DNA from: Oscillospiraceae bacterium
Lineage (GTDB): Bacteria; Bacillota; Clostridia; Oscillospirales; CAG-272
Direction: 5' to 3'
DNA length: 64,000 bases
Assembly: GCA_015063905.1 (NCBI GenBank)
Contig: SVTF01000006.1
Span: 5,120-69,119, forward strand
Made by a program: the position numbers and the translations under genes. The notes below the pieces were generated by a model. It saw nothing but the letters and a program-made list of their open reading frames with translations. It did not search any database and was not told where the DNA came from. Positions 9,308 through 29,877 of the stretch are shown in pieces (positions within the stretch are counted from its first letter, which is position 1; each line of letters opens with the position of its first letter).

Positions 9308-9361
9308 ACTACAGGTAGACCCCCGTTTTCTTTTTGTAGAGGCACATGCCGAAACAGTTTA

Positions 9362-9390
9362 TTGACTCTACATGCATTTTGATTTATTAT
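9362..9390 (+). promoter_or_regulatory. Putative sigma-A promoter of the GT8 operon
   Basis: TTGACT-N17-TATTAT. Confidence 0.55.
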
Positions 9391-9492
9391 TATAGCGTCG
9401 GAGCGAGTTTCGCTACGACGTTGTTTTATTTTTCGGCAAAGAAAACCTTTGTCTCCTACTGTTGTTGCTTGATCTTTCGAAAGGAGATAAAC

Positions 9493-10488: not shown

Positions 10489-11349
10489 ATGTCCGTGTCA
10501 CAATCAAGACTTAAGGTGCTTGAAAAAATAGAAGAACTTGAAAAAGAAGGGCTTTTTGATAGGGACGTTGAGGATGATCCCCCCACGACACCGCTTGTGC
10601 CTGGAACGGTGGATTATACCAACAAAAAGCTTTGGTCAAAAATAGCGGCAAGATTCGCGAGCATACTTGGAGAACATCATTTTGAAGGTATGCTCCGTCG
10701 TGGTGACGTTGTTCTGAAAGAGATAAGAGGCAGAGAAAATCTTGATGCCATAAAAAGCTGCGGAGCTCTTATAACCTGCAACCATTTCAATGCTTTTGAT
10801 AACTATGCGGTCAACAAGGCTATATCTCCCGCGCTCAAAAGCAGATATAATCTCTACAAGATAATTCGCGAGGGCAACTATACATCCTTTGGCGGCTTCT
10901 ACGGATTTTTGTTTCGCCACTGCAACACTCTTCCCCTCTCCTCCAATCTTTCCTGCCTGAAGGAGCTTATGTCTGCAATATCCACTCTTTTGGACAGAGG
11001 CGAAAAAATACTTATCTATCCCGAGCAGGGCATGTGGTACAATTACCGCAAGCCGCGCCCCTTAAAGCTTGGCGCATTTAGATTTGCCGCAAAGAGCCAC
11101 GCTCCTGTACTACCAATCTTTATTACTCTCGAGGATACCGAAGCTCTCGATGCCGACGGCATGCCCGTGCAGGCATATACGGTTCACATTCTGCCCGCAA
11201 TCTTTCCAAATAACAACGCAGGCATAAGGGAAAACAGCGAATATTTGTGCCGCAAAAACTACGAGTTTTGGAAAGCTACTTACGAGAGCTTTTACCAAAA
11301 AAAGTTGGAATATACCACAAACGGAGAAGTCGACCCATGCTCTATCTGA
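10489..11349 (+). CDS. PlsC-like lysophospholipid acyltransferase
   Basis: NHFNAFD (HX4D), IYPE, GAFRFA, PVLPI motifs. Confidence 0.85.
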   Translation: MSVSQSRLKVLEKIEELEKEGLFDRDVEDDPPTTPLVPGTVDYTNKKLWSKIAARFASILGEHHFEGMLRRGDVVLKEIRGRENLDAIKSCGALITCNHFNAFDNYAVNKAISPALKSRYNLYKIIREGNYTSFGGFYGFLFRHCNTLPLSSNLSCLKELMSAISTLLDRGEKILIYPEQGMWYNYRKPRPLKLGAFRFAAKSHAPVLPIFITLEDTEALDADGMPVQAYTVHILPAIFPNNNAGIRENSEYLCRKNYEFWKATYESFYQKKLEYTTNGEVDPCSI

Positions 11350-12552: not shown

Positions 12553-13179
12553 TTATTTTTTGCGTCCGATTATTGACCATAAAGCCACAATGAGCTGGCC
12601 GGGAATACCAAGAAGGTAGATCTGCCACAGATTGAAGCCTCCTACAAGTATGGACAAATGCACCGACAAAAGCACAGACCACATAAGTCCCGACACTATA
12701 AGGTAATTTCTGCGGCGGTTGTGCCAAATTGAGTTGAACACCAGCCAAACTATCATGGAAGCCACTATCGCATAGCCGAAAATCAGAAAATTGGCATTGG
12801 TGCGGTTGAGTGAAGCGTCAAAAATAACAAACAAGAGAGTAGCTATCACCCAAACAAGCAAAACGCTCATTCCTGTCACTACGCGATGCATGCGATGCTT
12901 CTTGGCGTCCCTGGCATATTGGGGAACCTCCGCGTCTGCTAAAGCCTGCTCCGTTTTTGGCTCCGGGTGATCCTCGGTTATAAGATAATCCACTGTGACG
13001 TCAAATATATCCGCAATTTCCTTAAGCACAACGATATCGGGAACGGATTCTCCTCTTTCCCATTTCGACACAGCCTTGTCCGAATAGTTCAGCTTTTCGG
13101 CAAGCTCTATTTGCGTCATACCGCTCCGCTTTCGAAGCATTACGATATTTTTTGATATTATAAGCTTTATATCTTCCAT
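12553..13179 (-). CDS. XRE-family HTH regulator with C-terminal transmembrane domain
   Basis: LRKRSGMTQIELAEKLNYSDKAVSKWERGESVPD HTH, then about 4 hydrophobic helices. Confidence 0.88.
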   Translation of the reverse strand: MEDIKLIISKNIVMLRKRSGMTQIELAEKLNYSDKAVSKWERGESVPDIVVLKEIADIFDVTVDYLITEDHPEPKTEQALADAEVPQYARDAKKHRMHRVVTGMSVLLVWVIATLLFVIFDASLNRTNANFLIFGYAIVASMIVWLVFNSIWHNRRRNYLIVSGLMWSVLLSVHLSILVGGFNLWQIYLLGIPGQLIVALWSIIGRKK

Positions 13180-13197: not shown

Positions 13198-13629
13198 TCA
13201 TTCCGCGCGTTTTCGGGCAAACAAGAATTTTAGCCTAAGCTTTAGAGAAACGAACGGGTGCGCGGCGCATATCATTACACAATATGCGCGATATGACAGT
13301 TTATTCATATCTACCCTTTTATCTTTTCTGTAAAACTCCACAAGTTTCCCAAGTATATCCGCGTCGGTTATGCCGAATTCCTTTTTGATGCAATTATCGC
13401 CTCGTATAACGTACGAATCGGGCAATACCTTTATCACTCGGTGAAGCACGTAGCTATCTCCCCTGCGATAAAGCGCGACGTCGTATTTTTTCAGCCGTTC
13501 TTTTGCTGGCTTTATAACTATAGTATCGCGCCTATCACGAAGCATGGGAACCATGCTGACACCCGACGTTGTACTGACGTAAACGCCTTGCTCACCAAGT
13601 ATTTTTTCTATATTTGCTATGTCACTCAT
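13198..13629 (-). CDS. S24/S26 family peptidase (Ser-His type, no N-terminal membrane anchor)
   Basis: GVSMVPML (catalytic Ser box), VLHRVI (His), RGDN box; ATGA overlap with the PqqD gene. Confidence 0.85.
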   Translation of the reverse strand: MSDIANIEKILGEQGVYVSTTSGVSMVPMLRDRRDTIVIKPAKERLKKYDVALYRRGDSYVLHRVIKVLPDSYVIRGDNCIKKEFGITDADILGKLVEFYRKDKRVDMNKLSYRAYCVMICAAHPFVSLKLRLKFLFARKRAE

Positions 13630-13892
13630 ATCTCGATCAGTCCGTTTTCAAGGAACATGTCTATGCTCTTTTGAACGTCTGTCTCTATCAGTTCGCGCTC
13701 CGCGTTATACTGCTCGAGCATAGCGTCAACGATCTGTTCCTTGGAATACCCTTTACCTATATAGCTCCAGATCTTGGCGGCAGATTCATTCAACTGTACC
13801 ATGCCGCGAAAATCACGGCTTGCCGCGCCAACGGCTATAATTACGTTATTGCCCATTACCTCGCGCAAAACGAATCCTTCTTTGATCTTCAA
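13626..13892 (-). CDS. PqqD family protein / RiPP recognition element (RRE)
   Basis: (M)KIKEGFVLREVMGNNVIIAVG...LNESAAKIW...IVDAMLEQY...DVQKSIDMFLENGLI; TTG start at 13892 with an AAAGGAG RBS. Confidence 0.88.
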   Translation of the reverse strand: MKIKEGFVLREVMGNNVIIAVGAASRDFRGMVQLNESAAKIWSYIGKGYSKEQIVDAMLEQYNAERELIETDVQKSIDMFLENGLIEI

Positions 13893-13917: not shown

Positions 13918-15696
13918 TCAGTCAAGCGCCTCAAACTCTTCAAGCGCGGACTTGAAGGACGCCATGCAAGAATCGAACGCATCCATGCATGTAAGGTCAA
14001 CGCCCGCAAGCTTCAAAAGCTCAACGGGGCTATCCGAACCGCCAGAGGACAAGAACTTGAAGTAATCGTCAACTGCAGTCTGACCCTCGTTATATATGCG
14101 CTCCGCGATAGAAACTGCGGAAATAATACCCGTTGCATACTTATAAACGTAGAACGCGCGATAGAAGTGAGGAATTCTTGCCCACTCGTAAGCGATCTCG
14201 TCGTCGGAAACCACGCTTCTGCCGTAGTATTTCTTGTTAAGATCGTGATAGGCCTTGCAAAGTGCTTCCTTGGTGAGAGGCTGTCCCTTTTCACACATGT
14301 CGTGTGCGATGTATTCAAACTCTGCAAACTGAGTCTGGCGGAACAGAGTACCCTTGAGCATATCCATATAATAGGAAAGCAGATACTTCTTGAGCTTTTC
14401 GTCCTCGGTGGTCTTCATAAGATGCTTTAGCAAAAGCACTTCGTTGACCGTACTTGCGACCTCTGCAACAAAGATCTTATAGTCTGCCTTCTCCTGGGGC
14501 TGATTTCTCTCGGAGAAGTAGGAGTGCATAGCGTGACCAAGCTCGTGAGCCAAGGTGAACACGTCGCCCGTGGTCTTCTGATAGTTGAGCAGTACGTAGG
14601 GGTGCTTGAGGCCGTAAACGGAGTTAGAATACGCTCCGCTTCTCTTGCCCGCGGTCTCCTCAACGTCGATCCAGCCGTTATCGTGAGCCTCCTGGAGCAA
14701 CTCCTGGTATCTTTCGCCGAGGGGCGAAAGTCCCTCTTTTACAAGCTTGAATGCGTCCTCATAGTCCAGCTTAAGCTCCGCATCTTCAACGGGAGATACG
14801 TAAACGTCATACATGTGCATGGACTTGAGTCCCATGAGCTTTTTCTTATCTCTGTAATAGCGATGAAGAAGCGGGAGTCCTTTCTTTACACTGCGGAGAA
14901 GATTCTTATATACCTTTACGTCAACGTCCTCGCGAGCCATGCTCATCTCAAGCGCAGAGCCGTATTTTCTCGTACGAGCAAGGAACACGTCCTTTTCAAC
15001 GTTACCCGAATAAGCCGCGGTTATGGTGTTGATAAGACCGATATACGCCTTATAGTACGCGCGGAACGCCTCGCGTCTTACCTTGCGGTCGGGATGGTGG
15101 AGCAATACTCCGTACATACCGTGAGTTACCTGAACCTTCTCGCCGTCCACCTTGATGGTGGGATAGGGGAAGTCTGCGTTGTCGATCATGCCGAATATCT
15201 TCTGGAAACCGCCGAAAATGGTTCCTTCCTGTGAAAGCATAGCCTCGATCTCCTTGGAGAGAACGTGTGGCTTGCTCTTGATGGTCTGGCGGATGGTGTA
15301 ATCGTAGTCGGCAAATCTCTCATCCTTCATAAGTGACTCAAGATACTCTGTAGGAAGTGCGGTAAGCTCAGGATTTACAAAGGATACCGCGCCCGCAAAC
15401 TGCATCCAGATAAGCTCAACGCGGGAATCAAGCGCCATAGCGTCACCGTTTCTCGTATCCTCGTCGTGCCACATAGACGCATAGACTGCCAGATGGCTGA
15501 GCTTATAAGAAACCTTGTTTATCGCTTCAAGACATTCAAGAAGCGTGTCGGGATCTGAAAGCTTGCCCTCGTACTTTGAAAAGTCAAGCATGCCTTCAAG
15601 CTCCTCATATGTTTTATTCCATTCGTCAACTGTCTCAAAAATGTCCGAGAGTCTCCATTTGAGATTTTCGGGAACGTCACATCTGTTTTTTGCCAT
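13918..15696 (-). CDS. pepF: Oligoendopeptidase F (M3B)
   Basis: WRLSDIF, KRSGAYS, TLAHELGHAMH (HExxH), FVAEVAS, WARIPHFY, FYVYKYATG. Confidence 0.95.
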   Translation of the reverse strand: MAKNRCDVPENLKWRLSDIFETVDEWNKTYEELEGMLDFSKYEGKLSDPDTLLECLEAINKVSYKLSHLAVYASMWHDEDTRNGDAMALDSRVELIWMQFAGAVSFVNPELTALPTEYLESLMKDERFADYDYTIRQTIKSKPHVLSKEIEAMLSQEGTIFGGFQKIFGMIDNADFPYPTIKVDGEKVQVTHGMYGVLLHHPDRKVRREAFRAYYKAYIGLINTITAAYSGNVEKDVFLARTRKYGSALEMSMAREDVDVKVYKNLLRSVKKGLPLLHRYYRDKKKLMGLKSMHMYDVYVSPVEDAELKLDYEDAFKLVKEGLSPLGERYQELLQEAHDNGWIDVEETAGKRSGAYSNSVYGLKHPYVLLNYQKTTGDVFTLAHELGHAMHSYFSERNQPQEKADYKIFVAEVASTVNEVLLLKHLMKTTEDEKLKKYLLSYYMDMLKGTLFRQTQFAEFEYIAHDMCEKGQPLTKEALCKAYHDLNKKYYGRSVVSDDEIAYEWARIPHFYRAFYVYKYATGIISAVSIAERIYNEGQTAVDDYFKFLSSGGSDSPVELLKLAGVDLTCMDAFDSCMASFKSALEEFEALD

Positions 15697-16915: not shown

Positions 16916-16935
16916 TAAGATAATCATTAAAAAAC

Positions 16936-16965
16936 ACTCCCGAGTACCTTTCGGCACTCGGGAGT
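16936..16965. terminator. Bidirectional terminator between asnA and peptide 1
   Basis: ACTCCCGAGT...ACTCGGGAGT inverted repeat with an A tract on the left. Confidence 0.7.
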
Positions 16966-16978
16966 ATTCTATTGTCGG

Positions 16979-17104
16979 TCAAGCACCAACTATAGGTCCT
17001 TCCCACGAGATCGTATCCTCGCTAAACGTAATTATATCGTTTTCAACGATGGTAACGATAATCTCGGGAGCTATATATTCCTTTTTTACATTATCATTTT
17101 TCAT
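16979..17104 (-). CDS. 41-aa RiPP-like precursor peptide 1 (MKNDNVKKEYIAPEIIVTIVENDIITFSEDTISWEGPIVGA)
   Basis: AAGGAG RBS 9 nt before ATG 17104; YxxP...T-x-S leader; paralog at 23222-23347 has only synonymous changes over the last 29 codons. Confidence 0.85.
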   Translation of the reverse strand: MKNDNVKKEYIAPEIIVTIVENDIITFSEDTISWEGPIVGA

Positions 17105-17136
17105 AATACTTTTCTCCTTGTATACCGTGTACCACA

Positions 17137-20100
17137 TCACTCTGCGGCAAATATAGACTGCGTGCTGGTACATTCAAATACATCGCCCGCATAGAGTTGC
17201 TCCATATAGAAGGGCTCAATGTATATCTTAACGCGTCTTGCATCTGCGCCAAAATAGTCGTAGCTGAAACTACCCCATCCCGTCGTCGGAACTCTGTCAT
17301 TTATCTTATAATCGGACATTTCAACGCGAACGTTGATCTTACCTCTGAACTCTGCCCAGGTTACATTCGACGTATCAAACGTAATACCCGAAGCATTCTG
17401 CGCCTGAAAGTCGGGGATCGTAGTCCATGCAAGATTGGTGTTTCTATGCTCGGTAATAATACCCGTTCCAAACTTGATAGCCAACATAGACGTTGCAGCG
17501 CGCTGAATGAATATATCGTCGGTCGCTGTAAACTTGTTGTGAATTACAAGACCGTCCTTGGTCCAAGTATCCGTTTTGACTCGGTCAAATACCTTTTCGT
17601 CAGTCGTGGTGTTTGCGCTGCATCTATTAAGATAGGACTCAACGACTGCCTGAACGCTGTCACAGCCCTTAAGCGCGTAATCCTTGCTCATATCAAGCTC
17701 CACGCCGTCAACCAGTATCTTAATACTCGTCATATACTCGTCACCGTGCCAGCCGCCGATAAAGTCCGCAGCGGCAGTTCCCTGACCGTAATTCAGCTTT
17801 TCCTGAATTGCTGCTTCTAATTCACACGCTCCCTGAACGGTGGTGTAAAGGAGGTTGAGGTCAGAGTCACAGATGTCAATCATAGATATTTTCCAGGAAT
17901 CAAATTTGGTCGTGTTGTCAACTATACGCTTGAACTCGTATCTTGTGTACTTATCAACGCCGGGCACATTGGAGCGAACGTATATATACATATGCTCGCC
18001 TGTCTTCTGATAGATAACCTTCTCAGCATTGTCGCCCACGGTATCTATAACGCCCTCAGAGTTAAGGTTCTTGTCAAAGGTATTGGATTTCCAATCTGTG
18101 TAAATTACGTTGTCATCACCAACCACAGTCGCTACCTCATCCCAGTTATCGCAAATTGCGAAATAAGCTATGTCAAGCCTCTCGTTGCCAGAGCATTTTT
18201 CGCCACTCTGATCTATCAGCATACCAACACAAACGTTGGATACAGCCGTCTGGTTTGCCGCGTAATTAGCCAAGCCGAGCTTTTCGATGTCAACAACGTA
18301 CACTACCCATTCATCAGAAATAGCCGCGGTAGGTCTTGAGTCGCCTGTAGTGTATGATGCAACACCCTCGTTATCGTTGTCACCGTTAGCGAGGAACCGA
18401 AGCTCATCGATATCGTGCGTACGAACCTTGATAACGAAGTACTTACCTGTGCCACCCTTGATGGTATCACCGAGATCTATAGGATCATTATCGCTACGCT
18501 TTCCGTTTACAGAGAATCCGCGCACAGGAGTAATGCTTCCGTTCGTGAACTCGAAAGAAGCACCCGTTCCCATCCTGATGCTTGAATAGATGAAGCCTTC
18601 CTCATCCTGCATAAGCGTTCCAACGGGCTCACATTTTGTGTTTCCGCCGTAGCCTGCTGCCCAGTTGTTATAGAACTGACCGGGAGCGGAATAATAGTTT
18701 ACAGAATCGTCAACGGTATTGGTATATACCTTCTTGCAATCCTTGCAGGTATAGGTTACAGTACCGTCTGCCGCAGATGTGAACTCGGGGCTGCAGAGTA
18801 CGCAAGAGCCATCAGAGTTCTTCTCAAAGAGAGCGGCATTGTTTGCCCATGCGGTGTAGGAAACGGTCTCACCCTCTCCAACGACCTTCTCTACCTCTTC
18901 CCAAGAGTCGCAAACTGCGAAGTAGGAAATGTCAACAGATACATTTGTTGTGTTAATATCACCCGAACCGGGTCCATACATAAAGCCCGCAGCGAGCTTT
19001 GTTCTGGTCGTGTCACCCGCTTCACCGTACGTAGTATTAATTCCCGTAAGAGTTAAAAGATCCTTGATATTAACGACGTAGGTTACCCATTCGCCGTTCT
19101 GTAAATCGGTCCTCAGTCCGAGATAGTTTCCACTAGGCTCTACCTCAGCTACGCTGTCGGACGCAGAAGATAGTCTCCATGCAAGTGCAGTTACGTTATT
19201 AGTTCTCATCTTAAATACGAGATAATTACCCGTACCACCGTTAAGGCTAACAAAGTATCCCTGATTAGGCTTTACATGTCCGCCGGTTGTAAGAGGCATT
19301 GTTCCGCCTCTGGCGGTGATACTAAACGTCTGATAAAGGACTCCGTTGTCATTTTTGATCTTTGTGTCAAGTGATGTAGCATACGCGTTCTTGTGAGCAA
19401 ACTGACCGGGAGCGGTAATATAGTTGATCGAGCTATCATAGGTGAGCTCATCATATACTGTTTTGCATACGGTACATGCATAAGTGTATTTATCACCGTC
19501 TTTGCTTACGGCAATTGCACATTCATCGCAAGTGCCATCGGGATTAAGGGTTGCCGCAGAGCCGCCTACCCAGGTCTCAACAAAAGTGACCTTTTCCTTG
19601 CCAACAACTGCCGCGATCTCATCCCAACCGTCACAAATTGCGAAATAAGCTATGTCGAGATATTCGCCGCTTGAGCCGCCGCCGGGCATACCAAGTCCAA
19701 CCGCAACCTTTGTAGCGGTGCTGTCATTGGCAACGTACTGAGTAGTACCAAATCCCGATATATCTACAACGTAGATGGTCCAATCGGTTGCAGACAGCTC
19801 GGAGGATACCGTTCTGTTGTCCGTCTTGGTAACGTAGTTACCCCAGGTGTTAGTCTGGTTTCCGCCGTCATCGGTGGAGTTAAGATACCAGTGCAGGTTG
19901 GACATTGCGTTTCCTCTGACCTTCAATACGAAGTAGTTACCCGTACCGCCGTTCAAGGTATCACCCGCATCGACCTGATTATGATCATTGTGGAATCCGT
20001 TAATGGACAAGCCTCTCTTAGGAGTTATTGTTCCATTAGTGAATTCAAAGTATGCCGCATTGCCCATCGGAATATGCTGATAGGTAACGCCGTTTTCGGT

Positions 20101-22053
20101 CAAAACGGTTCCCGCAACTGCGCAAGAAGAGCCCTTGCCTGCTGCATTCCAAGAGTTGTACATCTGACCGGGTGCGGAGAAGTAGTTGATATCTGCATCA
20201 AATGCATAGGTATTCTTACAAGAGGGGTTCTTGCAGACGTGGCTATACTTGCCGCCGCTTATGGATGGAACGTAGGCGTGAGTGCTTTCGCACTTACCCG
20301 TAGCGGTTAGCGTACTGTAAGCATTTGTCTCATTCTTCCAATCAACAGCGCTTACAGTCGACTCGGAAACGATGGCATCGATCTCCTCAAAGCTATCGCA
20401 GATTGCAAAGTAAGCGATATCCAAATTAACTGTTCTCGCGTTTGCCCCGCTTCCAAGATAAGCGAATGTCAAACCGAAGGATGCCGCGTTGACGTTAGCC
20501 TGGTTAGCACCGTAAAAACCGCTTGCAAGCTGTTCAATATCAATTACGTATATTTCCCACGTGTCACTCGACATATAGGACTTGTATCCCGAACCGCTGT
20601 AACGCTTGAGGCTGAGGCTGGATATTCCTCTGTCGGCATATCCCGCGCTGTCCGCGAACATAGTAAGATTGACCAATCCCTGGTTGTCGGTGCCCGCAGC
20701 AAGGGTGTAACGGTATTTCAATACTACGTATTTACCGCTTCCGCCGAGTATAGAATCGGCAATAACGTTTCCGTTAGCGTCCTTGATATACTGACGCGCG
20801 CCTTCAGCAGGAACAGTCATTGTCTGAACAACGTTGCTACCGTTTCTGAATTCAAAGCCGTCGCCGTCGGTAATTGTAAGTCTTGTAAACGTAAGGTCAC
20901 CCTCGGTCATAACCGTACCTACGGGAGTACCCGCAAGGGTTTCGCCGTCGGTTCCCTTTAAGTTGACCTGCTGACCGGGCGCGGAATAATAGTTAACACT
21001 GTCACTTACAGCGCCGCTCATAACCTTACCGCAGTAAGAACAGGTTGCAACAGAGGTATTGGCGCCAAGCGTTGTTGCCTCATAGTGCTGACGGTGGTGA
21101 GCGCAATCGGTTCTCGAGGGAACGTTATTAGTACCCGCGGTGTTGAGGTAGTAGTAATACATGGCGTGAGCTATGTCGCGCGTATCGTCACTGGCAGCCA
21201 ATACCTTAAGGCAGTCAAGCACGCTTGTGCTGACAGACACAGCATCCGCGCCGTCAACCTTAGCAACAAGCTCATAGGTTGTCGCGTAATCCGCGGTGCT
21301 TATGTTGCCCACCTTAACGTAATACTCATTGGTGTTTCCAACGCGTATACCGTCGGTCTTGCCTGTACCCGTATAGGTATAGTAAAGACGAATCTGGGTA
21401 TAGCTATCGAGAACAAGCTCATAGCGAGCATTTGTTACGTCGGCATTTTTGATCTCGGGAGTTACCTTAACACCCGTGCCAAGCTCGTATCCCATATTTA
21501 TAACAGGGTTAGTGCCTCTTGAGAAAACACCCTCGTTTTCAACTACGTTATTTGAGATCTGGTCATCAAACTGCTTATGCGCATACGCACCGTAGTTAAG
21601 AATGGATTTGATCGCGCTGTAATAGCTCGAATAATCCGCCTCGGCGTCAGTGTCAAGCACAAGCTCGGCATAATCTCTTACGGAATAAGTTACGGGAGCG
21701 CATGCCGCGACACCCGATCCGTTAACGGGGGTAACCGTAACGTCGCATCCCATCTCTGCCGCCGCGAGAGGAACGTTAAAGTACGTCTTTCCGTCCTTAG
21801 CGGTCACAAGAGGAACCGTTATCGAATGAGGATCGACGTTGTCATCGGAAATCACCGCCTGAGCGCTGGTAACGCTATCATCGGTTATGGTATAGTAAAA
21901 TCTTAAGTTGATATTACCGTCAGTCGCGACCTGAATACCGCCAAACGTTGCGCTGGGAGTTGCCATAATAACAAGCACTGCCGACAAAGCAACGATCAAG
22001 GTAAGCAGGGCGGCGATAAATATCACCTTTTGGGGTCTCATGACTCTTTTCAT
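17137..22053 (-). CDS. Giant secreted/surface modular protein 1 (about 1638 aa): signal/anchor helix, shared N-terminal domain, 4 repeat modules, unique C-terminal domain
   Basis: GGAGGAG RBS before MKRVMRPQK; hydrophobic N-terminus; four NY(Y/F/I)(S/T)APGQ...I(A/S)YFA(I/V)CD repeats preceded by Cys/His knuckles. Confidence 0.85.
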   Translation of the reverse strand: MKRVMRPQKVIFIAALLTLIVALSAVLVIMATPSATFGGIQVATDGNINLRFYYTITDDSVTSAQAVISDDNVDPHSITVPLVTAKDGKTYFNVPLAAAEMGCDVTVTPVNGSGVAACAPVTYSVRDYAELVLDTDAEADYSSYYSAIKSILNYGAYAHKQFDDQISNNVVENEGVFSRGTNPVINMGYELGTGVKVTPEIKNADVTNARYELVLDSYTQIRLYYTYTGTGKTDGIRVGNTNEYYVKVGNISTADYATTYELVAKVDGADAVSVSTSVLDCLKVLAASDDTRDIAHAMYYYYLNTAGTNNVPSRTDCAHHRQHYEATTLGANTSVATCSYCGKVMSGAVSDSVNYYSAPGQQVNLKGTDGETLAGTPVGTVMTEGDLTFTRLTITDGDGFEFRNGSNVVQTMTVPAEGARQYIKDANGNVIADSILGGSGKYVVLKYRYTLAAGTDNQGLVNLTMFADSAGYADRGISSLSLKRYSGSGYKSYMSSDTWEIYVIDIEQLASGFYGANQANVNAASFGLTFAYLGSGANARTVNLDIAYFAICDSFEEIDAIVSESTVSAVDWKNETNAYSTLTATGKCESTHAYVPSISGGKYSHVCKNPSCKNTYAFDADINYFSAPGQMYNSWNAAGKGSSCAVAGTVLTENGVTYQHIPMGNAAYFEFTNGTITPKRGLSINGFHNDHNQVDAGDTLNGGTGNYFVLKVRGNAMSNLHWYLNSTDDGGNQTNTWGNYVTKTDNRTVSSELSATDWTIYVVDISGFGTTQYVANDSTATKVAVGLGMPGGGSSGEYLDIAYFAICDGWDEIAAVVGKEKVTFVETWVGGSAATLNPDGTCDECAIAVSKDGDKYTYACTVCKTVYDELTYDSSINYITAPGQFAHKNAYATSLDTKIKNDNGVLYQTFSITARGGTMPLTTGGHVKPNQGYFVSLNGGTGNYLVFKMRTNNVTALAWRLSSASDSVAEVEPSGNYLGLRTDLQNGEWVTYVVNIKDLLTLTGINTTYGEAGDTTRTKLAAGFMYGPGSGDINTTNVSVDISYFAVCDSWEEVEKVVGEGETVSYTAWANNAALFEKNSDGSCVLCSPEFTSAADGTVTYTCKDCKKVYTNTVDDSVNYYSAPGQFYNNWAAGYGGNTKCEPVGTLMQDEEGFIYSSIRMGTGASFEFTNGSITPVRGFSVNGKRSDNDPIDLGDTIKGGTGKYFVIKVRTHDIDELRFLANGDNDNEGVASYTTGDSRPTAAISDEWVVYVVDIEKLGLANYAANQTAVSNVCVGMLIDQSGEKCSGNERLDIAYFAICDNWDEVATVVGDDNVIYTDWKSNTFDKNLNSEGVIDTVGDNAEKVIYQKTGEHMYIYVRSNVPGVDKYTRYEFKRIVDNTTKFDSWKISMIDICDSDLNLLYTTVQGACELEAAIQEKLNYGQGTAAADFIGGWHGDEYMTSIKILVDGVELDMSKDYALKGCDSVQAVVESYLNRCSANTTTDEKVFDRVKTDTWTKDGLVIHNKFTATDDIFIQRAATSMLAIKFGTGIITEHRNTNLAWTTIPDFQAQNASGITFDTSNVTWAEFRGKINVRVEMSDYKINDRVPTTGWGSFSYDYFGADARRVKIYIEPFYMEQLYAGDVFECTSTQSIFAAE

Positions 22054-22198
22054 GTCATATTCTCCTCCTACTATAAAATTTCTTTTCATATTCTATACTA
22101 TATTAGCATTAAATTTAATCGCAGAAAAGGCAAAATACGCCTAAAATATGGTCAAAAACGACAAAAATTAGCCCTCACTCAAACTACGAACTATTTTT

Positions 22199-22226
22199 AT
22201 TATATCACGGCGTATATTTTTTGCAA
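22199..22226 (-). promoter_or_regulatory. Putative sigma-A promoter of giant protein 1
   Basis: TTGCAA-N16-TATAAT with extended TG on the minus strand. Confidence 0.5.
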
Positions 22227-22342
22227 ATTGTGAAAAAAGCATTGATTGGCTCAAAAAATCGCCGATTCGCACAAATCAAAAGCCAATAAATTAGTAAAAT
22301 CCCACAAAAAAACCGTAATTCAAGGCTTTTTGTGGGATTATG

Positions 22343-23062
22343 TTATTTTATCAATTCCTCAAACGAGGTTTTAGCGGCTTCGTTTGAAACGTTACACTCC
22401 AAAAGATAAAAAGGTATATTTTTTGATAGCTTATCAAGCAGATCAAGCGTTAAAAGCCGCGCGCTTGCATCCTTGGGGATATACACCTGCGCCATTATCT
22501 CGGCAAAATACCGCGCGGGATCTATTCTTTGGATAGCGTTAGTCTTTCCGCGTTTCAAAAGGCATATGCCGCCAAGCTCCGCTATCGTATTTCTTTGCAT
22601 ATCCTCTTTGCCCGCCCAAGGGGTCGAGCAAACGCGAGCGCCTCTATCCGACACGTGAATTATCGGCTTGTCGCCGTTTACTATCTTCACTTCATCGGGA
22701 TAGTTTTTCATCAAGAGATCTATATGTGTCGTTTTGCCCGTACCCGACGGCGCGGTGAATATAAACCCTTTTTTGCCGATAGTGACCGCGGCGCCGTGGA
22801 ACACGAAGCGCGAAAATTTTGGCAACCTCTCCGCAATAGCGCGATAAAGACAAAGGCTCTCGCAATAATCCGCGGCATGCGGCGCGTCGTAAGCCGCCAT
22901 TTCGCGCGCTATCTCGTCTTCGTCGGCATAAGCATCGATATCAAAGTCCGCCTTGGGCGGTATTATATAATCATGGCATCTGTGGCGAACGAATTCATAG
23001 CTTGCGTTCATCCTTACAGATAGCTCGGATATTCCAATGTAAAACTGTTTTTTCTCTGACAT
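22343..23062 (-). CDS. HPr-kinase-like / ScmC-like P-loop protein (putative peptide Ser/Thr kinase)
   Basis: FHGAAV, FTAPSGTGKTTH (Walker A), NGDKP, STPWAGKE: pattern of HprK/PEPCK-fold kinases found with PqqD proteins; start at MSEKK with an AGGA RBS. Confidence 0.8.
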   Translation of the reverse strand: MSEKKQFYIGISELSVRMNASYEFVRHRCHDYIIPPKADFDIDAYADEDEIAREMAAYDAPHAADYCESLCLYRAIAERLPKFSRFVFHGAAVTIGKKGFIFTAPSGTGKTTHIDLLMKNYPDEVKIVNGDKPIIHVSDRGARVCSTPWAGKEDMQRNTIAELGGICLLKRGKTNAIQRIDPARYFAEIMAQVYIPKDASARLLTLDLLDKLSKNIPFYLLECNVSNEAAKTSFEELIK

Positions 23063-23178
23063 ATCTTGTCCTATATATAATAAATGAAGATTTTCGCTTT
23101 TCGCCATTGCGGCAAAGCAATAAGATTCTGATACACAACCGCCCGTGTACCTTGCGGCGCACGGGCGTGGTTTTGATC

Positions 23179-23206
23179 TGCCAAGGGCAGCTAACTGCCC
23201 TTGGCA
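23179..23206 (-). other. Perfect 12-bp hairpin downstream of peptide 2 with no U-tract; second hairpin at 23139-23167
   Basis: TGCCAAGGGCAG-CTAA-CTGCCCTTGGCA; may stabilise the upstream mRNA or attenuate read-through into the kinase gene. Confidence 0.5.
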
Positions 23207-23221
23207 TCTGATGTGTGTCGA

Positions 23222-23347
23222 TTATGCTCCAACGATGGGGCCTTCCCACGAGATTGTATCCTCGCTAAAGGTAATAATATCGTTTTCAACAATCGTCACT
23301 ATAATTTCGGGAGATACATATTCCTGTTTTACGATCTCATTGTTCAT
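23222..23347 (-). CDS. 41-aa RiPP-like precursor peptide 2 (MNNEIVKQEYVSPEIIVTIVENDIITFSEDTISWEGPIVGA)
   Basis: Hand-translated (below the ORF-track cut-off); AAGGAGG RBS; starts 21 nt after the stop of giant protein 2; 35/41 aa identical to peptide 1. Confidence 0.85.
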   Translation of the reverse strand: MNNEIVKQEYVSPEIIVTIVENDIITFSEDTISWEGPIVGA

Positions 23348-23368: not shown

Positions 23369-26300
23369 TTATTGTGCTGCTTCTGCGTCAACAAGTGCCT
23401 GAATGTCAGCGGCAGTCTTTGTAACGTCAACGGTGCTATCGCTCCACTTAGAAGCGTAAGTTACATCCGTATCCGTTCCAACAACAGTCTGAACCTCAGT
23501 CCAGTTGTCAACGATAGCGAAGTAAGCAAGATTGATGTAGTCATCCTCCAGCACACCTGTTCTGCCTTCGCCGCCCTTAATACCGTTAGCAACCTTAAGA
23601 CCTACGGACATTGTAGACATATCGGCATTGCTAAGATCATACCAAAGCTTATTGTTGCTTGTTCTTGTCAAGCTATCAAGCTCAACAACAACAGTTATCC
23701 ACTTGCCTACCATATCATCGGTTATGGTTCTCACGTGACTTGCAATATCGAAGAACCTGTCGGTATTGGGGTTACCTGCCGAAGTTTCGGTGGGTGCTGA
23801 GTACCAGTCGAGCTCGGAAGCACCGTCATAAAGACCAAGCTTCAACCTTCCAAGGTTCTTACTTCCTATGTACATCTTCATAACGATCATCTTTCCGGGG
23901 CCGCCCGAAATAGTATCGTCAGCAATATGCATCTTTGTGGTGTTGAAATTATTGTGCAATCTCAAAGAACCGGATTCCTTGAAGTATATGTGAGTATATC
24001 CGTTCTCACCGTCGCTTACAAGCGTATTGGTCGTGTTATAATGAGTTATCACCTGACCGGGTGCGCTATAGTAGTTGATGCTTGCATCCATAACGGTAGT
24101 TTTGTAACCGGTGGTCTCATCATTGAAGTTGGTAGTGTAGATTATCTCTTCACCACCGCCAACAACTGCCTTGACCTCTTCCCAGCTATCAACGATAGCG
24201 AGATATGCCACGTCAACTCTTGCGTCCGCTACAGCTTCCATTTCGTTTGAACGAATAATGAATCTGATCTTTGTAGCCGAAGGATCAACGTAACCGGAAA
24301 CATCAATTACATAAGTAACGAACTCTTCGGAAAGAATATCAGCGGTATTCATTCTGAACTCTCCACTGTTCCAAGCAATCTTCTTGCCCGTATCAGTCTC
24401 GAAGCCCATTCCAACCTTGATATTGTTTATGTTACGCATCTTAAGTACTATGTACTTGCCCATTCCGTCGATGCTGTCATCAACAGTGGTCTCGGTGTGA
24501 GTTCCGGCTGCTACGCTTCCGTTTGCCATAAAGAAGGATGCGCCCTGGTAGACGTTGACCTGCGTATAAACCATATCTTCTTCAGCAGAGATATAGCTCA
24601 GCGCATTCTTTTTACCCTCGAGAGAGTTAGATACGCTACAAGATCCGCCCAAGGAAGGCATATTAGCGGTTCCCCAGTTGTTTACGATCTGTCCGGGAGC
24701 GGAGAAGTAGTTAACGCCTGCGGGGCTAACGACCTCATATGTCTCACCGCAATTTGCATTTCTGCAAGTGTAGGTGTAAACTGTATCGCCGTTTCCGTTT
24801 GTTGTAATAACGGGAGCACTGAGTCTATGCTCGGCGCAGGAACCGTCCGCGTTACGATATTCATCGTTATCAGCGTTACTCCAGTTAGCCGCGTACATAA
24901 TCTGAGTATTATCCGTTCCAACAACCTTGGACACTTCTGTCCAGTCATCAACGATAGCGAAATATGCAAGGTCTACATAGTCGGTTTCCTTTGCACCTGC
25001 GCCGTTCTGTATCTTAAGACCAACGGATATGTTGGTGAGATCATCATTGGTGTAGTCATAGAACGTGTAGCTTCTCTGGTTGAGATTCCATGTTCCGTCC
25101 CCGTTCTGTGTGGGAGGATTAGCGCTATCAAAGTACGTATCCGTATAGGTCATCGTACTAAGGTCAACAACGTAGATCACCCACTCGCCTATAGGCTGTA
25201 CGGTAAGTCCTCTTACATGAGAGGCGCCGTCAAACAGAATGTCTGTGTGAGGACCGCCGAACGTATATCCGGTAACAACGCCATCGGTCTTAACCGTAGT
25301 GGTATAGAGAGGCATGGTATCGGCTCCGTCATAGAGACCTATCTTGAGCTGACCAAGACTTGTGCCGCCAAGACGAACCTTCATAACAGCGTATCTACCT
25401 GCGCCCTTGATGGGGTCATCAGCAACTGCCATAGTATTTGTGCTGCTCTGATTATGAAGTCTTACCGAGCCGCTCTTTGAGAAGTTGATTCTTGTATAAG
25501 CAAATCCGGCATCGACGTCATCTATAACAAGCGAAGGAGTCGAGTTATAATGCTGGATTGCCTGACCGGGTGCGGAGTAGTAGTTGATACTATCGTCTAT
25601 TACATGCGTTTCCTTTACTGTTCCGCATATATCACACTCTATACTATACTCAGTTGCTGTAGAAACAGTAACGTAAGTGTGGTCTCCCGTACATTCGCCG
25701 CCAACAATAGTTGTGGGAGTTCCGGATGCGAAATCAGTAAAGTAATTGACCTCTTCGGTCTCACCAACTACGTTGATTATTTCATCCCAATCGGAGCAGA
25801 TAGCAAAGTATGCCACGTCAACGTAAGCACCCGCAGTGTTACCGCCCTTGGTCTGAATAGATGCAGCTACCTTTTGTACAGTCTCGTCAACCTTAAAGGG
25901 AGCAGCGTTATACTTCGAAATGTCTATAACGTAAGTTATCCAAACATCTGTAGCAATGTTTACTCTCGTCTTCATATTAGACTCGGCCTTAAGCGTTCCT
26001 GTTCCAAGACCTATACTCATCTGGTTTACGTTATGCAAACGAGCCTTCAATACGATGTATCTGCCCATACCGCCGTTAATGGTATCCTCGGGCAAAGTGC
26101 TCTGGCTGGAAGGAACAGACGTGCCGTTGGTGAACTCAAACTGGCTTCCAACGTTGAGGTAAACTCTGGTAAACGTCTGCTTTTCGATAGCGTCGTAATC
26201 GTTAACACCGGTAACGCCATAACCAGCTCCATATCCCTGTCCCTCTGAGTTGTTACCTGTCATAGGCTTATAGTAAGTTCCCCAGAAGTTGTGATACTGA

Positions 26301-29300
26301 CCGGGTGCGGAGTAATAGTTTACGTCAGCGGAAACAGTTCTGCTGTCGGTAAGTCCGCAAACCTCATTGGAGCACTTATAGGTGTAGGTGTTGCCGTCCT
26401 TTGTAAGAACCATTCTATGCTCAATACAAGTACCGTCTGAATTACGGACCATATCGTTGCTTAAAGAATTCCAGGTTGTGAAAAGAACCTCTTCGCCTTC
26501 GCCTACAACGGATTCTATTGCGGTCCAGTCATCGCAGATAGCAAAGTATGCAACGTCCAGATACCAAGGCTTTTCGGGATCGGTAATGTAGGCGTTTTCA
26601 TAGCCCGATGCGCTATTGTTGGTCTGCAACCACATTGTTGCGGAGGTGTTGCTTCCAACTGTATAATAATTCTTGCCACCCGCCTGTGAAAGATCTATAA
26701 CGTACGTTGTCCACTCGGAGAAATCCGCTTGTCTGTACATTGTATCTGCAACAGCATCGTTAGCAGCATTGGATCCGTTGACTACTCCAAGCGATATACG
26801 CTTGACCATGGGAGATCTGAGTCTGAGAACGGCATAACGTCCCGACTTAGCCACGGTGTTGGAATAAGGACTGCTTGTCGTCGTGTCTGCCTTAAGATAC
26901 ATAGAAGCGCCCGTATGTCCAAAGCCGTATCTTGCGTAGAATCCGTCGCCGTCATTCATAAGAATGGTATAACCATTGCTCTTAACAAACGCGGATTGCG
27001 TGTAGCTCGATGCAACCCACTTAGGCGTTGCGAGACCGGGAGCCGCATAGAAGTTGACTTGACCTTCTGCTGTGCCGAGGGTAGGTGTTGTTACACTGTG
27101 AACCACGTCGCCGCAGGCTTCACACTTGTAGTTTACAGTATTGCCGCTTATAGAGATCGCGTGGTTGTTAAGCACACAGTCAACGGCAGTCTTGTTCTTA
27201 TCATGGTTGACAGTATCCCAGTTTGTATAGAGATAGGAAGTATCCTTGCCGATCACGTCAATGATCTCTGCGCAAGTGTCAACAACCGCAAAGTACGCAA
27301 TATCAACGTATTCGCCAAATCTAACGCCGCCGGCACCATCACCGTACATGAATCCGTATACCGCCTTGGTAACGCTGGTATCCTGGGACTTGTATGTATT
27401 GATAGAAAGCTTTGCGAGATCTATAACGTAGATCGTCCACGCATTCTTCTCGAGAATGCTGTTTTCACGTCTTGCGACGTAGCTTCCGGGATTGGGGAGC
27501 GTACCGCCAGCATCCGCGGTACCCAGTCTCAATGACAAGCCTTGCTTGGCATTCGTTCTCATTTTAAGAATGAGGAATCTACCCGAACCGCCGTTAAGGG
27601 TAACGTGAGCAGTTCCGTCAATATGTCCTGCGCTGGTAAGCGGAATTGTTGCGCCACCATTGTTAATATTTATTCTCTGGAAGAGAGTTCCGGTAGCTTC
27701 GTCGTAAGATACACCCTGAGAAGATCCCGACCAAGCGTGGTTCACTTTTACTGTGCCGGGAGCTGTGTAAAGGTTGATCTCCTCGGTAAACACCTTGTTC
27801 TCTGTGAGAGTTGCCGTTGTAGTAGCTCCGCACTCGATACAGGTCTTTGTAGGCGCATCGTAGAAGTGAACGCCATCGGGGCATGTGGTGTTATCTCCGT
27901 CCGTTGTAAGATATGCATCGTAAGATCCGTTCTTCCAGTTTGTGCGGAGGAACGTTTCGTCGCCAACGATACTATATACCTCTTTCATGTCGTCACAGAT
28001 AGCAAAGTATGCAATATCTGTGTAACCGGGGCGGTAATCGGGGCCGTTAACGTCGCCCGCTACGGCTCCGTTGGTAGGGACAGAGTTTACGCCTGAGAAT
28101 GCCATTGTTGCGTCGATCATATCGATAGAAGCAAGATCCTTGCCGGCAAATGCCGCGTTGCCCATCTGAGCTACGTCGATAACGTAGATAGTCCAACCGT
28201 TGAAGACCTTCTGATTAGCGTAGATGTCACTATAATTCTCTCCGTTTCTCGAAGTCAGCGAGTTTGCTGTTGCTCCGGGTGCCGTAAATCCGAGATTGAA
28301 GATGTTGTGAAGATCTTTGTAAGTCCATTCGCCGTTAGAGCCAAGAGTTCCAACGTTAGCAGCTCCGGCTCTCATCTTGATAACTATGTAGTTACCCATG
28401 CCGCCGTTAAGCTTGTAGTCAGGAGTTTTGCTATGAGTCTGGGAGTTTCCTATGGTAGCCTGAGTTGCAGTACCGTTGGTGAACTCAAACTGACCGGACT
28501 GCCATGTGTAAATACGGCTATAGGTCGTTCCATCCTCATCGGTCTCATAAGACTGAATGAAGTAGTCCTTATTCAAAGAGCTCGTTGTTCCGCTGGTTGC
28601 CCAGTAGTTGTTGAACTGACCGGGAGCGGAATAATAGTTAATCTCGTCGTGTACAACACTGTTTACCTTGAATCCGCAGAACGTACATACAGGCTGAGAA
28701 TACTCAGATCCGTATTCAACGGGCTCGTAGTGCATAAAGTGCTTACACGTTGCCTGGCTTACTGCGGGGCCGACGTTAGCGTTGGTCCAGTAGTAGTAGT
28801 TGTACATAGCGAGCGCAAGCTCGTATGTGTCAGCATCTGCCTTGAGAGCAGACAAGCAATTGAGTACGCTTGCTCCGGAAACGTCGATAGCCTTAACACC
28901 GTTAACGTTTACAACGAGGTCAGCAGAGTGATCCGTTGCAAAGCCGGTTGTGGATATGTAGTTTCCGCCAACGTACCATCTGCCGTCCTCACCCTGCTTA
29001 CCGGAGTGAGACTCGGTGGTTCCGTTCCAAACGTAAGAGAGACGAAGCTCAACGCTGTCCTCAAGCACGATCTCGATCTTGGGATCGGAGATGAGGCTTG
29101 CAAACTCGTCAACCACTGTAGCAGTAGGCTTGTTGTTTGCGGAAAGCTTAGAGTCCATACCGATTATCGGGTTGGTGTCTCTCTTGTAGATACCGTCATT
29201 CACTACGACCGTGTTGATGAATGACATACCTTGTGACTTAAAGTACTCATTTGCGTACTGTCCGTAGTTAAGAACCGCTTTAATAGCTCTTGCGTCTCTT

Positions 29301-29737
29301 TCGGTAGCACTACCGGAATTGAGCAGAAGCTCAGCGTAGCTTCTTACGGAGAAGGTTTTTGTGTCACACGCGTTAAGTCCGCCGGATGTCTTGGGAGTAA
29401 CCTTAACGTCGTAACCCATTTCTGCCGCAGCAAGACGTACTCTCGCATAGTACATTCCTCTCGTCTCGTCATACACGAGGTCCACAGTTTCCGTGCGTTC
29501 CTCAGAGTATCCATCCATGACGACAACGTCTGCGGTTTTTACGTTCTCAGCGTTTTCGGGGGTAATCTCGTACCAGAAGAGCATGTTGATCTTACCGTCC
29601 GTGGTTACCTGAACACCCTTGAACGTAGCCGTGTCAGTAGCCAAAATGATAACAACTGCCGCGATCGCGATCAGAGCCGCAAGCACGATAGCCGTGATTA
29701 TCACTCTTGGCTTTTTGAAAATCGTTTTCGTGTTCAT
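23369..29737 (-). CDS. Giant secreted/surface modular protein 2 (2122 aa): signal/anchor helix, shared N-terminal domain, 7 repeat modules
   Basis: AAGGAG RBS; hydrophobic N-terminus; seven N(Y/L/F)(Y/F)xAPG...AY(F/L)A(I/V) repeats; paralog of 17137-22053. Confidence 0.88.
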   Translation of the reverse strand: MNTKTIFKKPRVIITAIVLAALIAIAAVVIILATDTATFKGVQVTTDGKINMLFWYEITPENAENVKTADVVVMDGYSEERTETVDLVYDETRGMYYARVRLAAAEMGYDVKVTPKTSGGLNACDTKTFSVRSYAELLLNSGSATERDARAIKAVLNYGQYANEYFKSQGMSFINTVVVNDGIYKRDTNPIIGMDSKLSANNKPTATVVDEFASLISDPKIEIVLEDSVELRLSYVWNGTTESHSGKQGEDGRWYVGGNYISTTGFATDHSADLVVNVNGVKAIDVSGASVLNCLSALKADADTYELALAMYNYYYWTNANVGPAVSQATCKHFMHYEPVEYGSEYSQPVCTFCGFKVNSVVHDEINYYSAPGQFNNYWATSGTTSSLNKDYFIQSYETDEDGTTYSRIYTWQSGQFEFTNGTATQATIGNSQTHSKTPDYKLNGGMGNYIVIKMRAGAANVGTLGSNGEWTYKDLHNIFNLGFTAPGATANSLTSRNGENYSDIYANQKVFNGWTIYVIDVAQMGNAAFAGKDLASIDMIDATMAFSGVNSVPTNGAVAGDVNGPDYRPGYTDIAYFAICDDMKEVYSIVGDETFLRTNWKNGSYDAYLTTDGDNTTCPDGVHFYDAPTKTCIECGATTTATLTENKVFTEEINLYTAPGTVKVNHAWSGSSQGVSYDEATGTLFQRININNGGATIPLTSAGHIDGTAHVTLNGGSGRFLILKMRTNAKQGLSLRLGTADAGGTLPNPGSYVARRENSILEKNAWTIYVIDLAKLSINTYKSQDTSVTKAVYGFMYGDGAGGVRFGEYVDIAYFAVVDTCAEIIDVIGKDTSYLYTNWDTVNHDKNKTAVDCVLNNHAISISGNTVNYKCEACGDVVHSVTTPTLGTAEGQVNFYAAPGLATPKWVASSYTQSAFVKSNGYTILMNDGDGFYARYGFGHTGASMYLKADTTTSSPYSNTVAKSGRYAVLRLRSPMVKRISLGVVNGSNAANDAVADTMYRQADFSEWTTYVIDLSQAGGKNYYTVGSNTSATMWLQTNNSASGYENAYITDPEKPWYLDVAYFAICDDWTAIESVVGEGEEVLFTTWNSLSNDMVRNSDGTCIEHRMVLTKDGNTYTYKCSNEVCGLTDSRTVSADVNYYSAPGQYHNFWGTYYKPMTGNNSEGQGYGAGYGVTGVNDYDAIEKQTFTRVYLNVGSQFEFTNGTSVPSSQSTLPEDTINGGMGRYIVLKARLHNVNQMSIGLGTGTLKAESNMKTRVNIATDVWITYVIDISKYNAAPFKVDETVQKVAASIQTKGGNTAGAYVDVAYFAICSDWDEIINVVGETEEVNYFTDFASGTPTTIVGGECTGDHTYVTVSTATEYSIECDICGTVKETHVIDDSINYYSAPGQAIQHYNSTPSLVIDDVDAGFAYTRINFSKSGSVRLHNQSSTNTMAVADDPIKGAGRYAVMKVRLGGTSLGQLKIGLYDGADTMPLYTTTVKTDGVVTGYTFGGPHTDILFDGASHVRGLTVQPIGEWVIYVVDLSTMTYTDTYFDSANPPTQNGDGTWNLNQRSYTFYDYTNDDLTNISVGLKIQNGAGAKETDYVDLAYFAIVDDWTEVSKVVGTDNTQIMYAANWSNADNDEYRNADGSCAEHRLSAPVITTNGNGDTVYTYTCRNANCGETYEVVSPAGVNYFSAPGQIVNNWGTANMPSLGGSCSVSNSLEGKKNALSYISAEEDMVYTQVNVYQGASFFMANGSVAAGTHTETTVDDSIDGMGKYIVLKMRNINNIKVGMGFETDTGKKIAWNSGEFRMNTADILSEEFVTYVIDVSGYVDPSATKIRFIIRSNEMEAVADARVDVAYLAIVDSWEEVKAVVGGGEEIIYTTNFNDETTGYKTTVMDASINYYSAPGQVITHYNTTNTLVSDGENGYTHIYFKESGSLRLHNNFNTTKMHIADDTISGGPGKMIVMKMYIGSKNLGRLKLGLYDGASELDWYSAPTETSAGNPNTDRFFDIASHVRTITDDMVGKWITVVVELDSLTRTSNNKLWYDLSNADMSTMSVGLKVANGIKGGEGRTGVLEDDYINLAYFAIVDNWTEVQTVVGTDTDVTYASKWSDSTVDVTKTAADIQALVDAEAAQ

Positions 29738-29848: not shown

Positions 29849-29877
29849 ATTATAGCACCCACCCCCTCCTTTGTCAA
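29849..29877 (-). promoter_or_regulatory. Perfect-consensus sigma-A promoter of giant protein 2
   Basis: TTGACA-N17-TATAAT with extended TG on the minus strand. Confidence 0.8.

Follow-up and report, generated by a model that had tools for sequence, protein, structure and literature searches.

We analysed a 64,000-nucleotide stretch of the genome of an Oscillospiraceae bacterium, referred to here as the window (GTDB lineage Bacteria; Bacillota; Clostridia; Oscillospirales; CAG-272; GenBank assembly GCA_015063905.1, contig SVTF01000006.1, positions 5,120 to 69,119 of the forward strand). Within it, we focused on two 41-codon open reading frames (ORFs), each lying closely behind a gene for a giant protein, and on nearby genes that could act on their products (Table 1). 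The first ORF encodes MKNDNVKKEYIAPEIIVTIVENDIITFSEDTISWEGPIVGA (peptide 1) and the second encodes MNNEIVKQEYVSPEIIVTIVENDIITFSEDTISWEGPIVGA (peptide 2), and these two are the only copies of the peptide gene in the source genome. The gap between the stop codon of the giant gene and the peptide ORF is 32 nucleotides (nt) for peptide 1 and 21 nt for peptide 2, and sequences resembling a ribosome-binding site (RBS), AAGGAG and AAGGAGG respectively, are found 5' of the starts. A preliminary description of the locus had given the coordinates of both ORFs, their strong RBS and the two gaps, an identity of the peptides from Pro13 to Ala41, replacements at six of the first 12 residues, and differing stop codons (TGA and TAA). 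All of these were confirmed.

Table 1. Genes and predicted signals at the twin-peptide locus. Positions count from the first letter of the window; aa, amino acids.
Feature	Position	Strand	Description and basis
Peptide gene 1	16979..17104	minus	41 codons and TGA; translation, codon comparison, homologs
Peptide gene 2	23222..23347	minus	41 codons and TAA; 114 nt upstream of the kinase gene
Stand-alone PqqD-type recognition element, LppB-like	13626..13892	minus	88 aa, TTG start; Pfam PqqD 1.7e-13, above the cut-off
Signal-peptidase-I-like serine peptidase, LppS-like	13198..13629	minus	143 aa; fold, motifs
HprK-fold P-loop protein, candidate peptide kinase, LppK-like	22343..23107	minus	254 aa; AlphaFold2 model
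Giant gene 1	17137..22089	minus	1650 aa; N-terminal membrane anchor, ~4 modules of 250-280 residues, Cys-rich linkers, distinct 310-residue C-terminal domain
Giant gene 2	23369..29737	minus	2122 aa; paralog of giant 1, ~7 copies of the same module
HTH_3 and membrane-segment protein	12553..13179	minus	Pfam HTH_3 1.2e-14; conserved third gene after recognition protein and peptidase in the genus
Oligoendopeptidase F (M3, PepF)	13918..15696	minus	Directly upstream of the recognition protein in 19/20 genus loci
Intrinsic terminator after peptide gene 1	16925..16970	minus	18-bp stem and U tract, -31.1 kcal/mol, z-score -8.9
Two strong hairpins without U tract, spacer between peptide gene 2 and kinase gene	23139..23206	minus	Folding
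Consensus promoter upstream of giant gene 2	29849..29877	minus	TTGACA, 17 nt, TG, TATAAT; consensus match only
Weaker promoter upstream of giant gene 1	22199-22227	minus	Consensus match only

The two ORFs were compared codon by codon. Residues 13-41 of the peptides are identical, and the 13 differences in the underlying codons are all synonymous and in the third position, with no non-synonymous change. This reproduces exactly a hand count over these 29 codons in the preliminary description. Codons 1-12 carry seven base changes that result in six amino-acid replacements, and 105 of the 126 bases are identical overall. A codon alignment with estimates of synonymous (dS) and non-synonymous (dN) divergence had been proposed as a check, and we ran it on the twin pair by the Nei-Gojobori method. 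Codons 13-41 gave 13 synonymous and 0 non-synonymous differences (Sd 13, Nd 0), a near-saturated dS of ~1.6 and a dN of 0, and codons 1-12 gave a dS of 0.20 and a dN of 0.23. When codons 13-41 received 13 substitutions at random, these were all synonymous in 0 of 2,000,000 simulated trials, and the analytic chance of this outcome is 0.226^13, or ~4e-9. We conclude that the twin ORFs are genuine coding genes under selection. The true start of peptide 1 is likely to be the ATG at 17104 rather than an upstream ATG at 17173, because every homolog starts at the equivalent Met; the upstream extension of this copy had earlier been called spurious. We ruled out that the peptide is a read-through C-terminal extension of the giant, given the gaps of 21 nt and of 32 nt, the latter out of frame, and the RBS and ATG that each ORF has of its own. 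A WXG100-like or bacteriocin reading was ruled out by the size, the net charge of about -5 and the absence of the corresponding genes.

The twin peptides are members of an acidic peptide family of uncultured gut Clostridia, with lengths of ~40 residues, the consensus MKKEYxxPEIxVxxVxxDIITxSE...WEGPIV and, in many members, an acidic tail after it. Five residues (Tyr10, Pro13, Thr26, Ser28 and Pro37) are invariant in 26 aligned peptides. A word-based search returned six candidates, all of them family proteins and the window's two included, and a profile search of 1.84 billion representatives (E <=0.001) returned 25 proteins, 20 of which are peptides of 38-50 residues. The remaining five are long multi-repeat proteins, and their matches look like chance short-word repeats in the three that were inspected. 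When a degenerate DNA pattern was searched against species-representative genomes, 15 of 20 places were small ORFs of the family, found in metagenome-assembled genomes of animal and human gut origin that carry the labels Clostridia, Eubacteriales or Oscillospiraceae; four were chance matches inside long frames and one was ambiguous. Within the genus of the source genome, the profile detected peptide copies in 18 of 39 genomes. No family in Pfam or NCBIfam matched the peptides or the giants, the sole match of these scans being a sub-threshold one to PF18543 that we judged to be noise, and the peptide profile found only chance matches in the PDB, with no leader chain among them. The dN of 0 against a near-saturated dS, the 20 homolog clusters and the 18 genus genomes bear out the earlier claim of a real, sequence-constrained small protein. 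We also conclude that, in gut metagenomes, many of the unannotated genes of 30-50 codons that lie behind giant genes are real.

Three genes in the window encode candidate maturation enzymes. The first product is a recognition element of the kind that serves peptides made on the ribosome and modified after translation (RiPPs), and a genome-wide PqqD search gave a match at window positions 13635-13835. A profile of 18 orthologs of this protein had as its four best PDB sequences TfuB1 (2.6e-8), TbiB1 (4.2e-8), PbaB1 (5e-4) and LppB (9x8z, 1e-3), and PqqD proper scored far below all four. Its stop codon overlaps the ATG of the peptidase gene (ATGA). The peptidase has the motifs SGVSMVP, LHRV and RGDN, and all 19 sequences compared have the same Ser25, His63 and Asp78. 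Its sequence found nothing significant in the PDB; its structural model (pLDDT 87.6) was best matched by the folds of SpsB (4wvg, 1.8e-4) and SipA (4n31), followed by LexA/UmuD. The third protein was modelled by AlphaFold2 with a pLDDT of 92.7, and the top solved folds were HprK/P (1kkl, 1kkm and 1jb1, E from 8e-7), followed by phosphoenolpyruvate carboxykinase. We refer to it below as the kinase.

Among relatives, recognition protein and peptidase tend to occur together with the peptide. Their two genes lie side by side, and the same 28 of the 39 genus genomes have both. Close kinase orthologs (at least 41% identity) occur in 25 genus genomes, all inside those 28, and the 11 genomes without the recognition protein-peptidase pair have kinase copies of 26-32% identity only. 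In 19 of 20 other genomes examined, the kinase lies 0.04-7.4 kb from the pair, and the conserved gene order in the genus is GT8, acyltransferase, HTH-membrane protein, peptidase, recognition protein, PepF, AsnA, kinase, ..., RsmF, HAD. The 18 genus genomes with the peptide all fall within the 28 that have the pair, and none is among the 11 that lack it. A sample of 151 genomes from the order contained the peptidase in 49 and the peptide in 13; the peptidase was present in 11 of the 13 peptide-positive genomes, compared with 38 of the 138 others. Fisher tests gave p values of 2e-4 for the genus and 8e-5 for the order, both of which overstate the case because relatives are not independent. The peptidase was also found in 9 of 10 further genomes with family peptides. 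A complete 3.0-Mb genome from another family (G087) holds a complete cluster at a single locus (L072), in the order giant, giant, family peptide, kinase, PqqD, peptidase, MsbA-like ATP-binding cassette (ABC) exporter and PF14907 nucleotidyltransferase. The family peptide of this locus has 32 codons (7492-7590) and starts 15 nt after the second giant gene, and the three enzymes best-match the window's three, with 33% identity between the kinases. Kinase, PqqD and peptidase genes also form operons in other families of the order, in some cases with the ABC or nucleotidyltransferase gene.

Taken together, we conclude with a probability of roughly 70% that the twin ORFs encode precursor peptides of the linear polyphosphorylated peptide (LPP) type, held constant by single-copy maturation enzymes. 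The LPP system, lppA-K-B-S-D-N, was described by Popov et al. (Nat Commun 2026, PMC13381572) for Bacilli that include Paenibacillus alginolyticus. As the main text of that paper describes it, the recognition protein LppB is a stand-alone PqqD; LppS is a SipW-like serine leader peptidase (triad S29/H68/D93) that requires LppB and cuts after Thr-1; and LppK is an HprK-like kinase that polyphosphorylates Ser3. For the peptides described here, the predicted leader comprises residues 1-26, with the conserved Tyr10-x-x-Pro13-Glu-Ile ... Asp23-Ile-Ile-Thr26, and the predicted core comprises residues 27-41. The recognition protein would bind the leader through its YxxP motif (Tyr10-x-x-Pro13) and hand the peptide to the peptidase, which would probably cut after Thr26. 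We favour placing the -1 position at Thr26, because LppA also has Thr there and because Ile24 would fill the hydrophobic -3 site. The kinase would probably phosphorylate the invariant Ser28, and the acidic 15-residue core would be released and then exported. Both copies would be fixed from Pro13 on because both peptides must fit the same single-copy enzymes and one downstream target, and the N-terminal 9-12 residues would contact nothing and hence drift.

The giant proteins encoded upstream of the peptides were said in the preliminary description to be heavily diverged paralogs, and we measured 31% identity between them over 1420 aligned residues. Neither giant matched a family in Pfam or NCBIfam. 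An Atlas search with giant 1 gave only weak leads to carbohydrate-binding-module-like folds, and its 310-residue C-terminal domain falls in an unnamed family of Bacillota (Atlas score 0.97) that has no Pfam entry. A short four-Cys linker (CxxC ... CxxC type) precedes each repeat module of the giants. Judging from the sequence, each peptide gene is co-transcribed with its giant gene. The whole 114-nt spacer that separates the kinase gene from peptide gene 2 (23108-23221) folded at -51.7 kcal/mol (z-score -5.9), and the two very stable hairpins within it may act in processing or attenuation, so that the transcript levels of peptide and kinase are uncoupled.

Among 24 readable peptide genes of the genus, 22 lie within 850 nt of an ORF of at least 400 aa on the same strand and 17 lie this close to one of at least 900 aa, compared with 24% and 2.5% for random positions of the source genome. 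This count excludes four weak genus matches without a convincing family ORF (G024:C156, G046:C100, G022:C174 and G050:C182). Such adjacency, together with the predicted shared transcription unit, would also be expected if the peptide were an unmodified small protein that binds the neighbouring giant, as a chaperone, assembly factor or strand-donating subunit, and if the nearby enzymes were unrelated to it. We consider this explanation unlikely. We rejected a fit to the individual neighbouring giant as the cause of the constraint, because the cores of the two peptides do not differ at all and the giants share so little identity. The giants are exported, but the peptide carries no signal for export. 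More than one family is represented among the large neighbours, and in other genomes they belong to unrelated ones (GDSL lipase, Laminin_G_3, Metallophos and Flg_new/Big_2). Outside the window, contig C3 of G000 (C3:32461-55700) encodes five tandem giant lipoprotein paralogs of 807 to >1962 aa that contain at least 20 copies of the 250-280-residue module of the window giants, and none has a trailing peptide gene. Because the large neighbours are of several families and these five paralogs are without a peptide, we conclude that no single giant fold has the peptide as its dedicated partner. Binding to a giant would also leave the YxxP motif, the invariant Thr and Ser, and the co-occurrence with recognition protein and peptidase unaccounted for. 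In two relatives (G017 and G008), the kinase and giant cassette have as neighbours IS200/REP-type transposase-like genes and a small DUF559-like gene (L011:327-1223 and L013:441-941). These transposase-like neighbours fit the idea that giant-peptide cassettes are inserted units.

If the twin ORFs encode LPP-type precursors, their product would most likely work at the cell surface together with the giants. This is the least supported step of the proposed pathway, and we draw it from the predicted co-transcription of peptide and giant genes. A specific form of this idea is that the phosphorylated, exported core could be a surface docking ligand, with the giants, as putative glycan-binding surface proteins, held to the cell or released from it by binding the tail of the core. 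Its basis is that the core tail (Trp, an acidic residue, Gly, Pro and then aliphatic residues) also ends acidic lipoproteins encoded directly upstream of the kinase in relatives, and we would be surprised if it proved right. If it did, LPP-type peptides would be parts for tethering surface proteins, not antibiotics.

In 12 of 19 genus loci (L011:2004-2501, L013:1739-2233 and 2524-2760, L052:7137-7613 and L046:472-1110, among others), the kinase is preceded directly upstream by a gene for an acidic lipoprotein of low complexity. The C-terminus of this lipoprotein (Trp/Tyr, acidic, Leu, Gly, Gly/Pro, Val, Pro, Leu/Ile, Gly) resembles the peptide core tail. In the window, peptide gene 2 takes the position upstream of the kinase gene, and the source genome has no such lipoprotein. 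A family peptide in G021 (L083:9098-9190) combines a YxxP leader with a lipoprotein-type tail, as found on that genome's own lipoprotein (L046), and is the one peptide that lacks a large neighbour within 850 nt.

The peptide cores are uniform inside one genome and different between genomes. For example, G017 has three paralogous copies with a common cleavage region and core start, unlike those of the source genome. Such a pattern could also be explained by a pheromone precursor, made by the same biosynthesis as proposed above and processed by the peptidase, whose product would be sensed by the helix-turn-helix (HTH) membrane protein and would report or control expression of the giant genes. 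The place of the HTH gene as the conserved third gene after recognition protein and peptidase agrees with a pheromone, as does a response regulator that comes after the G087 cluster. The HTH protein, which is Xre-type with several membrane segments, may be a membrane-bound regulator of the system. However, the HTH gene is missing from the canonical clusters that other families have, and the published LPP clusters have no known signalling role in the main text of their description (PMC13381572). We therefore think a pheromone function quite improbable. Among the other neighbours, genes for a GT8 glycosyltransferase and an acyltransferase (window 9346-11349, plus strand) flank the operon in most genus loci, and PepF, GT8 or the acyltransferase could take part in processing or decoration of the peptide.

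A complex of recognition protein and peptide was predicted in three runs with ipSAE scores of 0.58, 0.57 and 0.58, compared with 0.00 for the best of three controls, which lends weak support to their binding. Contact agreement between the runs was at least 93%, and the pLDDT of the partner was at least 56. The ipSAE mark is reached by 58 of 80 solved complexes and by 2 of 110 mismatched pairs, and passing scores of 0.60 or less comprise only 7 of the 80 solved complexes plus both passing mismatches.

Several points weigh against the LPP-type assignment. The predicted complex scores in the weak band, and its pass may reflect likeness only, to the solved complexes 5v1v, 6jx3 and 9x8z. The peptidase matched TIGR02228 below threshold (2.5e-4, 20.9 bits against a cut-off of 51.85), and the kinase had no significant sequence-family match in library scans or in a PDB sequence search, so that both enzymes are assigned by modelled fold and by synteny. 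No peptide match was found in 10 of the 28 genomes with recognition protein and peptidase, and 2 of the 13 peptide matches in the order sample are in genomes without the peptidase; both of these are weak, one having an internal stop and the other lying inside a 261-residue frame. The kinase family is present in 38 of 39 genus genomes, including distant copies where the peptide is absent. The cluster is dispersed in the genus, with the window kinase 8.5 kb from recognition protein and peptidase, and the MsbA-like exporter and PF14907 nucleotidyltransferase are absent from the window cluster; the sole PF14907 gene of the source genome is on contig C19, and ABC homologs are elsewhere. Gene adjacency binds the peptide to the giants at least as tightly as to the enzymes. 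Relative to the LPP precursors, whose leader motif is YxxPxVLxHQxIxFETxxS in the published text (PMC13381572), the leader here is YxxPEIxVxxVxxDIITxS, with only YxxP and the spacing in common, and with Thr26 as -1 the Ser is at +2 and not at +3. Finally, cleavage, phosphorylation and export are steps that we infer from the genes.

The likeness to phosphorylated lasso peptides of Bacillota (paeninodin type) also had to be weighed. In the sources that describe them (PMC13381572, PMC7533575), these systems have a B1-type PqqD, an HprK-like kinase that acts on a Ser of the precursor and a PF14907 secondary enzyme, all of which have counterparts among the genes discussed above. A lasso-peptide precursor would be consistent with the YxxP leader and with a recognition protein that is most similar to lasso B1 proteins. 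However, paeninodin-type leaders have WxxP where this family has YxxP, and neither a cyclase nor a B2 cysteine peptidase was found. In the source genome, which is 89% complete, the B2 peptidase domain (PF13471, Transglut_core3) had no match, and the cyclase domain (PF00733, Asn_synthase) had only marginal matches of ~21 bits away from the cluster. A signal-peptidase-type serine peptidase takes the place of B2. With these results, we regard a lasso peptide as extremely improbable. A rumen lasso-peptide survey deals with cyclase-containing clusters.

The LPP-type reading rests its comparison on the published Bacilli system, whose clusters, as far as the main text describes them, also contain a nucleotidyltransferase and an MsbA-like exporter (PMC13381572). 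The two systems have in common a PqqD recognition protein that adjoins a signal-peptidase-I-like serine leader peptidase, an HprK-like kinase and the lack of a macrolactam cyclase. They also have in common an N-terminal YxxP, a conserved Thr and Ser 16-18 residues past the Tyr, and a variable C-terminal part. In LPP precursors the phosphorylated Ser comes 18 residues after the Tyr (PMC13381572), and the distance from Tyr10 to Ser28 is likewise 18 residues. The ABC exporter and the PF14907 nucleotidyltransferase stand in the cluster of the related complete genome. In contrast to LPP, the host here is an uncultured gut Clostridia lineage rather than a member of the Bacilli, the core is very short (~15 residues), and the cluster is dispersed in the genus with exporter and nucleotidyltransferase not nearby. 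In addition, the precursor genes lie 3' of giant surface-protein genes rather than in capsule loci, and the conserved neighbours are the HTH-membrane protein and PepF.

We found nothing in the published literature on the gut-Clostridia form of the peptide or on its pairing with surface proteins, and the main text of Popov et al. (PMC13381572) mentions neither Clostridia nor surface proteins; its supplements may list clostridial clusters or precursors. A paralog pair with saturated silent sites and zero replacements is a natural experiment that marks the residues that matter, and the repeatable genomic link to giant surface proteins offers a hypothesis, open to test, about the purpose of such peptides in gut bacteria. 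The pathway type is known from that one paper. LPP was described only in 2026, in Bacilli, and this lineage would add a second, sequence-distinct precursor family.

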